From: an uncultured bacterium
GTDB lineage: Bacteria; Abyssobacteria; SURF-5
DNA length: 64,000 nucleotides
Reading direction: 5' to 3'
Assembly (NCBI GenBank): GCA_964607485.1
Contig: CAZSKP010000009.1
Span: forward strand, 14,045-78,044
This document shows, piece by piece, positions 50,604-50,819 of the stretch. Position 1 is the first letter of the stretch, and every line of letters begins with the position of its first letter. The notes beneath the pieces were generated by a model, which saw nothing but the letters and a program-made list of their open reading frames with translations, searched no databases and was not told where the DNA came from. The position numbers were made by a program, and so were the translations under genes.

Positions 50604-50819
50604 GCGGGGTCAGGTCTTGCATTGCAACATTCTTCATGATACTGCGTTGGCATGTCGAGACCGTTGCGCATAGAGTCCCAAGGCGCGGTGCGTCACCTCG
50701 CCGCGTGAGGAAATACCCGACAGCAGATATTCTTGGATAATACGAACAGGCAGGAATTTCTCCAGGCGCTCGGGCGAGTAGAAAAGGACTGAATGTTGCA
50801 ATGCAAGACCTGACCCCGC
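50604..50819. repeat. Perfect 29-bp inverted repeat pair flanking a 158-bp spacer (MITE-like or long structured element)
   Basis: 50604-50632 gcggggtcaggtcttgcattgcaacattc is the exact reverse complement of 50791-50819; sits in the gap between convergent genes. Confidence 0.6.

Follow-up and report, generated by a model that had tools for sequence, protein, structure and literature searches.

The window analyzed here is a 64,000-nt stretch of DNA from an uncultured bacterium of the lineage Abyssobacteria (SURF-5; assembly GCA_964607485.1, contig CAZSKP010000009.1, positions 14,045 to 78,044), and the subject is a 216-bp inverted-repeat unit that lies in it between two convergent genes. On the plus strand, an Oxidored_molyb gene (50008-50598; Pfam E 7e-44) ends at 50598, 6 nt left of the unit. 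A small open reading frame (ORF) on the minus strand (50825-51085) approaches from the other side, with its stop codon beginning at 50825, 6 nt past the repeat end. Positions 50604-50632 (GCGGGGTCAGGTCTTGCATTGCAACATTC) and 50791-50819 are perfect 29-nt reverse complements (100% complementary) that enclose 158 nt; from GGGG to CCCC, the unit measures 212 bp. A preliminary description of this DNA had reported the perfect 29-bp repeats around 158 bp and the 6-bp distances to the molybdopterin oxidoreductase stop and to the stop of the convergent small ORF, all of which the coordinates, the complementarity and the gene positions bear out. We interpret the unit as an internally deleted, non-autonomous copy of a TIRtron, with a probability of roughly 0.85. 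TIRtrons are insertion sequence (IS)-like elements of ~0.95 kb in which repeats starting GGGGTCAGGTCTT surround one TIRYT gene, whose product joins a Y1/HUH domain to a C-terminal helix-turn-helix (HTH).

The segment between the arms had been described as short and non-coding. It is short, but it is a fragment of a transposase gene, as seen by tblastn and by translation. When intact transposases from long elements with the same arms were compared to the whole window by tblastn, one significant place was found, at 50652-50804 on the plus strand (residues 1-43/53, E 1e-9). The remnant is 53% identical to residues 1-43 of the protein from an Aminicenantes locus (L028), and the broader set of TIRYT proteins matches it over residues 1-45 with up to 58% identity (E 1e-9 to 1e-13). 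The interior translates as MSRPLRIESQGAVRHLAA*GNTRQQIFLDNTNRQEFLQALGRVEKD*, and in the same frame the right arm then reads MLQCKT*. R19, which is invariant in an alignment of eight long-element proteins, is replaced by a TGA in frame (50706-50708); the invariant D32 is now N, and the usual Y14 is now R. The fragment ends upstream of the HUH motif, so that its product would be inactive even without the stop codon. The geometry of the copy is canonical, with the ATG at 50652 lying 46 nt from the GGGG at 50606, the modal distance at loci selected by protein similarity. The lost part, ~700 bp, starts near codon 47 and ends a little way into the right arm; intact elements are 902-1311 bp long. What is left is a short unit with terminal inverted repeats at both ends, no functional transposase and a pseudogene fragment only. 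The features of the unit and of its two junctions are as follows.

50599-50603, no strand: left junction residue CGAAG, which cannot be aligned to the spacer of an element-free relative, save for a possible CGAAG match
50604-50632, plus strand: left terminal inverted repeat, with the family-wide conserved block at 50606-50630 (GGGGTCAGGTCTTGCATTGCAACAT)
50604-50605, plus strand: bases GC, outside the family-wide block and mirrored at the right end
50633-50651, plus strand: remnant of the transposase 5' leader, which with the arm makes up the 46 nt from the first G of GGGG to the ATG
50652-50789, plus strand: TIRYT pseudogene fragment, codons 1-46, MSRPLRIESQGAVRHLAA*GNTRQQIFLDNTNRQEFLQALGRVEKD (tblastn, translation)
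50790-50792, plus strand: approximate internal-deletion junction, with a TGA after codon 46 and then the right-arm block at once
50791-50819, minus strand: right terminal inverted repeat, with the conserved block at 50793-50817
50820-50824, no strand: right junction residue TTATT, where homology with relatives of 91% identity begins, directly past the repeat

Two other sets of signals in the window were set aside. Weak transposase-like tblastn matches at 55.5-56.3 kb lie inside an MFS transporter gene and are noise, and core-like 13-mers at 28099 and 36600 are about as many as chance would give and have neither a partner arm nor a TIRYT ORF. A word search with the remnant peptide gave no homologue.

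The arms belong to a family that is dispersed over many bacterial phyla. Within the 64 kb, the 29-mer has no site with up to three mismatches beyond the two arms (0 of 100 dinucleotide-preserving shuffles). A 22-mer of the arm, starting at GGGG, was then scanned against one genome per bacterial species, and exact matches were found in more than 116 genome stretches among the matches listed. The hosts include Actinomycetota, Beta- and Gammaproteobacteria, Rokubacteria/Methylomirabilota, Omnitrophota, Aminicenantes, Nitrospirota, Endomicrobiales, Chloroflexota, Desulfobacterota and others. In the alignment, similarity among the loci begins at GGGG and is lost beyond about base 25, and the conserved block is GGGGTCAGGTCTTGCATTGCAACA(T). 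The arms occur mainly in inverted pairs, 76 of which are spaced 33-170 bp from GGGG to CCCC and seven 902-1311 bp; only the window element (212 bp) and one other (L069, 254 bp) have intermediate spacing. Single genomes, among them Rhodoferax OV413, two metagenome-assembled genomes (MAGs) of Rokubacteria, an Omnitrophota MAG and an Aminicenantes MAG, carry the arm on 4-7 or more different loci or contigs, and some mini elements (L034/L037, L113) recur with an unchanged interior between different flanks. Both ends have their outer 16 nt in common; the inner half of the left arm differs from that of the right in most pairs, and perfect complementarity mostly ends at 16 nt. The base at -1 is a pyrimidine in 74% of arms, a weak preference. 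Target duplications beyond chance were not found in 83 arm pairs (59 with 0 nt), and a systematic test of arm pairs gave no palindromic extension into the flanks. The arm had 0 matches in viral contigs and no similarity to any plasmid record, and its sequence is absent from the searchable literature, TIRYT papers included. At one locus (L010, 1052-3181), an arm pair 2.1 kb apart encloses no transposase gene and instead a 468-aa ORF unrelated to the transposase, which by eye we take to resemble a pyridine-nucleotide-disulfide oxidoreductase; it may be a passenger gene bounded by TIRtron arms.

Each arm pair spaced 0.9-1.3 kb apart, with 22-25 nt of the window arm conserved identically, encloses one ORF of 274-298 aa. 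These proteins start MARPLRIE..GA.YH..RGN, continue with NHYHL (HUH), GH.FQ and Y.VLNPVRA, and end in an HTH (..HYSTVSR..). They match Pfam Y1_Tnp (PF01797) with E values of 1e-10 to 1e-12, plus HTH_23/HTH_38. Scores of 71.3 and 77.6 bits for NCBIfam REP_Tyr_transpos do not reach the equivalog cut-off of 80, and NCBIfam transpos_IS200 reaches 17 bits where 55 are required. Among solved structures, E. coli TnpA-REP (4er8) is the closest, the HUH and tyrosine regions aligning to it, and H60, H62, Y119, N123 and P124 are invariant in the eight-protein alignment. Transposases with an identical flanking 22-mer are 40-58% identical to one another (81% in one pair), a divergence that is partly built in by the selection on the 22-mer. 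A survey selected by protein is free of that bias. For this survey, 80 TIRYT genes were taken from metagenomes by protein similarity alone, and 75 had enough upstream sequence. At 69 of the 75, an arm within four mismatches of GGGGTCAGGTCTTGCA is present, mostly starting 46 nt before the ATG, and the outer ~13 nt (13-16) are near-invariant across the family.

In three of the long elements (L042 735-1678, L084 2198-3143 and L091 3428-4370), the transposase frame enters the right arm and its last residues are MLQRKT*. The right arm of the window keeps that frame at 50793-50813, where the plus strand reads ATG TTG CAA TGC AAG ACC TGA (MLQCKT*). Since the C-terminus of the transposase is encoded by the right arm, part of the arm is under both coding and end-recognition constraint in those subfamilies.

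The name 'TIRtron' was given to a gene together with flanking repeats of this kind; GGGGWSAS is common to many of these repeats, and they can be dispersed as families of moderate abundance, often in dimeric form (Di Nocera, De Gregorio & Rocco 2013, PMC3733652). The proteins of TIRtrons, the TIRYTs, have been equated with subclass 2.1 of TnpA-Y1, which is defined by NH[YF]H, FQ, Y[IV]xLNP and a C-terminal HTH_23/DnaA_C-like domain and beside whose genes no repetitive extragenic palindromes (REPs) were found (Quentin et al. 2018, PMC6006769). The same proteins constitute RAYT group 1, the most widely distributed group, which occurs in 21 bacterial classes and is, with group 6, one of the two most IS-like by duplicates and plasmid carriage (Bertels et al. 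2017, PMC5581495). The window arms start GGGGTCAG and fit GGGGWSAS, the cognate protein has NHYH, FQ, Y[IV]xLNP and an HTH_23-like C-terminus, and the arms likewise occur as dimers and dispersed families with a wide, patchy spread across phyla. The window element is a new degenerate member of this known, little-studied family. It differs from what has been published in keeping only codons 1-46, the literature covering gene-bearing units and arm repeats. In the literature using the term TIRYT, we found no deletion intermediate, no near-invariant 13-16 nt terminus GGGGTCAGGTCTT(GCA) and no 46-nt spacing from arm to ATG.

The relationship of the cognate protein to RAYTs (REP_Tyr_transpos at 71-78 bits, 4er8 as best PDB match) raises another reading, in which the unit would be a REP/REPIN doublet served by a domesticated single-copy RAYT. 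A REPIN is laid out as two inverted units that form a hairpin (PMC3116915), and the window unit has this layout. REPIN/RAYT systems and TnpA-REP share further traits with it: membership in the HUH/Y1 superfamily, non-autonomous inverted doublets forming hairpins, the lack of a target duplication, and placement between convergent genes. However, REPs are palindromic units with a GTAG or CGTC head, whereas the window arm has neither head and, taken singly, is not a hairpin-forming palindrome, its sole internal symmetry being TTGCA-T-TGCAA. The protein stays under the equivalog cut-off of 80, and no REPs were found beside subclass 2.1 genes (Quentin et al., PMC6006769). RAYTs of groups 2 and 3 are inherited vertically and occur as single copies, whereas TIRtron repeats are true terminal inverted repeats around a gene, are shared across phyla and travel in an IS-like manner. 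We therefore regard a REPIN as very improbable.

The IS200/IS605 family (IS608, ISDra2), with its palindrome-associated miniature derivatives, is another related system. It has Y1/HUH chemistry, presumably the same single-stranded DNA route, and short non-autonomous derivatives that consist of ends only. IS200/IS605-type HUH/Y1 transposition makes no target duplication. In contrast to the mutual inverted repeats of TIRtrons, the ends of this family are dissimilar subterminal hairpins; its TnpA has ~150 aa, a Y...Q signature and no HTH, against 274-298 aa, Y..LNP and an HTH in TIRYT; and it inserts beside a fixed tetra- or pentanucleotide, whereas TIRtrons have only the weak pyrimidine preference at -1. 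No direct repeat or target-site duplication flanks the window unit, in agreement with the preliminary description, and its absence is expected because the cognate enzyme is Y1/HUH and not DDE.

Classical DDE-type miniature inverted-repeat transposable elements (MITEs) such as Correia, Nezha and the Tn3-derived miniature elements (TIMEs) resemble the unit in being short, in having terminal inverted repeats and no functional gene, and in originating by internal deletion. They differ in making target-site duplications, of which the window unit has none, and in being defined by multiple copies, of which the window has one in 64 kb. Tn3-family repeats begin with GGGG, as does the arm, and the size of the unit would suit a TIME or another DDE-type MITE. 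A Tn3-family TIME would be expected to have repeats of ~38 bp, a 5-bp target duplication and a DDE partner. We nevertheless give such an origin next to no credence. A 5-bp target duplication is missing at the unit and in the 83 arm pairs, plasmid records, where Tn3-family transposons abound, have nothing similar, and the gene within identical arms elsewhere is Y1/HUH and not DDE. The reading is refuted by this Y1 cognate gene and by the Y1 remnant that makes up the interior.

The junction was compared to relatives that lack the element. The Oxidored_molyb gene product, a molybdenum cofactor (Moco) protein, has a cluster mate (at least 90% identity) in CP070779.1 (Ca. Hydrogenedentota, to which the host is related; locus L202). 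There, at 72-79% nucleotide identity, the Moco gene, a convergent URO-D gene and an M14 peptidase gene follow one another in this order without an arm, and homology with the window stops at 50600 and restarts at 51125. Three JGI contigs (L203-L205, 91% identity) contain the M14 gene, the small ORF and then other genes; the element is absent, and homology with the window begins at 50820, directly past the right arm. In another sample, a Logan contig (L206) has the gene adjacency of the window without the element, with a Moco gene end that is 97% identical (stop codon included), a 45-nt spacer and a small ORF that is 87% identical. The element is absent in all relatives examined (L202-L206), and the boundaries defined by synteny (homology stopping at 50600-50604 and restarting at 50820) are within ~3 nt of those first described. 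Because L206 has the same gene junction without it, the element is lineage-specific. The conservation of the whole segment at this locus, which the preliminary description had named, in combination with a lack of other copies in the genome, as an argument for a local hairpin, was thus not found in relatives. Its suggestion of a miniature inverted-repeat element is supported by the transposon-family arms, the remnant interior and the absence at the L206 junction; amplification of the MITE type is not part of that support.

The first relatives obtained (75-78% aa identity) were unusable as an empty site, as their downstream gene differs (URO-D). At 51113-51121, where the region diverging from L202 has its right edge, lies a GGGGTGA-like box, which was discarded; element-free relatives have GGTCACTCC there, and the box is ancestral. 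Three gene arrangements meet at the junction (window 50599-51124; L202 10612-11816): URO-D, other genes after the small ORF, and direct adjacency of the Moco gene and the small ORF. The identity of L206 to the window, 97% to the left of the junction and 87% to the right, suggests recombination at or near it. The 216-bp palindrome is explained as transposon debris that marks a junction rearranged in this lineage, with the element at the breakpoint, and the ORFs in its interior should not be annotated as genes.

A repeated arm could in principle produce a chimeric join during assembly. In the source sample (SRR14802574), one Logan contig (L001) ends at 50604 and an independent one (L207) begins at 50614, so that 9 nt of the left-arm tip (CGGGGTCAG) are uncovered by both. 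L207 is 100% identical to the window over 50614-53106, a span that takes in 19 nt of the left arm, the interior and the right arm. L206, from the other sample, independently confirms that the Moco gene and the small ORF are neighbours. The element is not an assembly artefact, an explanation for which we see only the slimmest chance. The break at k = 31 is not accounted for by the 29-nt repeat alone; heterogeneity or low coverage at the junction could be responsible.

The preliminary description had offered a long-stem RNA as the alternative to a mobile element, and as a side effect this may hold. The predicted RNA fold is very stable, at -106 kcal/mol (z = -7.5) on the plus strand and -99 kcal/mol (z = -6.8) on the minus strand, and UUAUUUCAUGUUU comes after the stem on the plus strand. 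The spacer of the element-free L206 (reverse complement, 82-126) has its own hairpin (GAAGATGAGATGG...CCACTCATCTTC), which overlaps the small-ORF stop codon, reaches -17.5 and -28.6 kcal/mol on the two strands, and is likely a native bidirectional terminator at the place of the element. REP elements have been reported to terminate or stabilize transcripts (PMC3733652), and a stem kept for terminating or stabilizing the convergent transcripts, with its transposon origin incidental, could be envisaged. As an account of the sequence, however, this alternative fails. There is no Rfam match at the element (E <= 1, window region) and none at gathering score in nine related loci; a consensus terminator scan calls nothing at the element; the 158-nt loop, a pseudogene, is unlike an intrinsic terminator, for which a short-loop GC stem with a U tract would be expected; and none of the relatives examined has the segment. 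Across phyla, the arms are conserved in sequence with no covariation and in most pairs differ in their inner halves, which fits recognition of DNA by a protein and not RNA pairing. We consider a functional RNA improbable as the reason for the unit. As a by-product, the deleted TIRtron copy does place a very stable stem where two convergent transcription units have their 3' ends, and because the relative has a native hairpin at this place, an incidental terminating or stabilizing effect is plausible.

IS608 TnpA and E. coli TnpA-REP serve as the model for how such a copy would have moved. By this analogy, the family would move via single-stranded DNA, in which the two arms would pair into a stem that brings both ends together; as single-stranded DNA, the window unit is predicted to fold at -54.8 kcal/mol (z -6.3). 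The HUH/Tyr domain would cut and rejoin the strand at or near the foot of the stem, at the GGGGWSAS box, and the HTH probably reads the variable, subfamily-specific inner half of the arm (TTGCATTGCAACATT in the window). Insertion would leave no target duplication. The window copy has no enzyme and therefore cannot move by itself, only in trans. A TIRYT protein with matching arm specificity could mobilize it in this way, the needed cis sequences having been kept.

Two histories may be considered for the deleted TIRtron copy. It may be a dead end, having arisen by deletion at the site or being the only copy of its kind, or it may be an amplified MITE, i.e. a deleted mini element that was mobilized in trans by TIRYT, landed as a unit of 212-216 bp, and has siblings elsewhere. 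Amplification is suggested by arms that are perfect and of canonical geometry while the interior has inactivating changes, by arm-only minis dispersed at 4-7 or more loci in single genomes, by the recurrence of some minis with the same interior and different flanks, and by the break of the source-sample Logan assembly in the left-arm tip. On the other side, the interior has no sibling in the window, the fetched loci or the JGI metagenomes, and the window element, as the sole transposase remnant among 85 short or mid-size arm pairs, looks like a one-off intermediate. The three defects in the 138-nt interior predict ~1.3 changes in the 58 nt of the arms, with a probability of ~0.28 for none, so that the perfect arms are compatible with chance and do not discriminate. 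We rate the dead end as slightly more likely, because no partner was found in the window and no sibling copy in the searches; the amplified MITE is a tentative alternative at somewhat less than even odds.

Several points count against the interpretation as a deleted TIRtron copy. The 64-kb window contains no full-length TIRYT gene. At the DNA level, a second copy of the interior was found neither in the window nor in 116 genome loci or 80 metagenome loci, and a codon-degenerate pattern for MSRPLRIESQG had 0 matches in the JGI metagenomes. The comparison of filled and empty sites is not clean, as the 45-nt spacer is replaced by ~5 + 5 unalignable bases, which makes the exact termini and the target unreadable. 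The perfection of the arms had to be rejected as evidence of selection by the same arithmetic (P ~0.28). Biochemical work on any TIRYT was not found in the searchable literature, and all of the mechanistic steps proposed for TIRYT rest on analogy.

The arms of the family display a tandem duplication at the junction in 25 of 227 cases, of the form X + GGGGTCA + X + GGGGTCAGG..., where X is 7-10 nt of locus-specific flank. The boundary on the element side is nearly always after base 7, control sites have the pattern at 0.04%, and 14 of 144 arms in an independent protein-selected set (L125-L199) have it as well. It was seen at L003, L004, L006, L023, L029, L031, L060, L064, L065, L090, L091, L097, L103, L107 and others, with three units in a row at L031, and is absent at the element of the window. 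The duplication may have been left by a cleavage or strand-transfer step, as yet undescribed, that takes place 7 nt inside the arm.

A broader proposal, which we regard as doubtful, is that TIRYT represents a currently active pan-bacterial IS family in which the outer 13-16 bases, GGGGTCAGGTCTT(GCA), are essentially invariant across transposases that are 40-58% identical. If so, the ends would be held by a constraint stronger than co-evolution with the transposase, e.g. a fixed geometry of catalytic site and DNA or a host factor, and between gene-bearing elements and the abundant mini hairpins the window element would stand as the first deletion intermediate. TIRYT and TIRtrons are widespread, and the window copy, with both ends and 46 codons, would define a minimal cis-acting substrate for biochemistry, with the near-invariant outer arm half and the duplication ending 7 nt inside the arm as further handles. 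What is known of this kind of element is unchanged by the finding.

A conserved gene row at 46962-50598 encodes an ArsR-type HTH protein, a 529-aa S-adenosylmethionine methyltransferase with a fused CdhD-like domain, a 4Fe-4S ferredoxin and the 196-aa sulfite-oxidase-like Moco protein; it is common to Ca. Hydrogenedentota CP070779.1 and partly to more distant relatives. The small ORF (50825-51085, minus strand; 86 aa) is a conserved gene with an 83% identical homologue of the same length, and its cluster has five members that are always located directly after an M14 peptidase gene. Pfam gives it one weak signal only, which does not reach the threshold (HisKA, E 0.0096), and in source annotations it begins at an internal Met (63 aa). 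The idea that it is a URO-D remnant was dropped, as it has no similarity to URO-D and is a conserved small gene instead. A weak Rfam match to the Caulobacter small RNA CC3513 at 51026-51193 on the minus strand (21.7 bits against a gathering score of 40, E 0.44), which extends over the start of the small ORF and into the gap that precedes the M14 gene, is most likely due to chance. Within the element, at 50629-50764, three sigma-70-like hexamer pairs (consensus matches only) were counted against 0.3 expected from shuffles, two of them on the minus strand.

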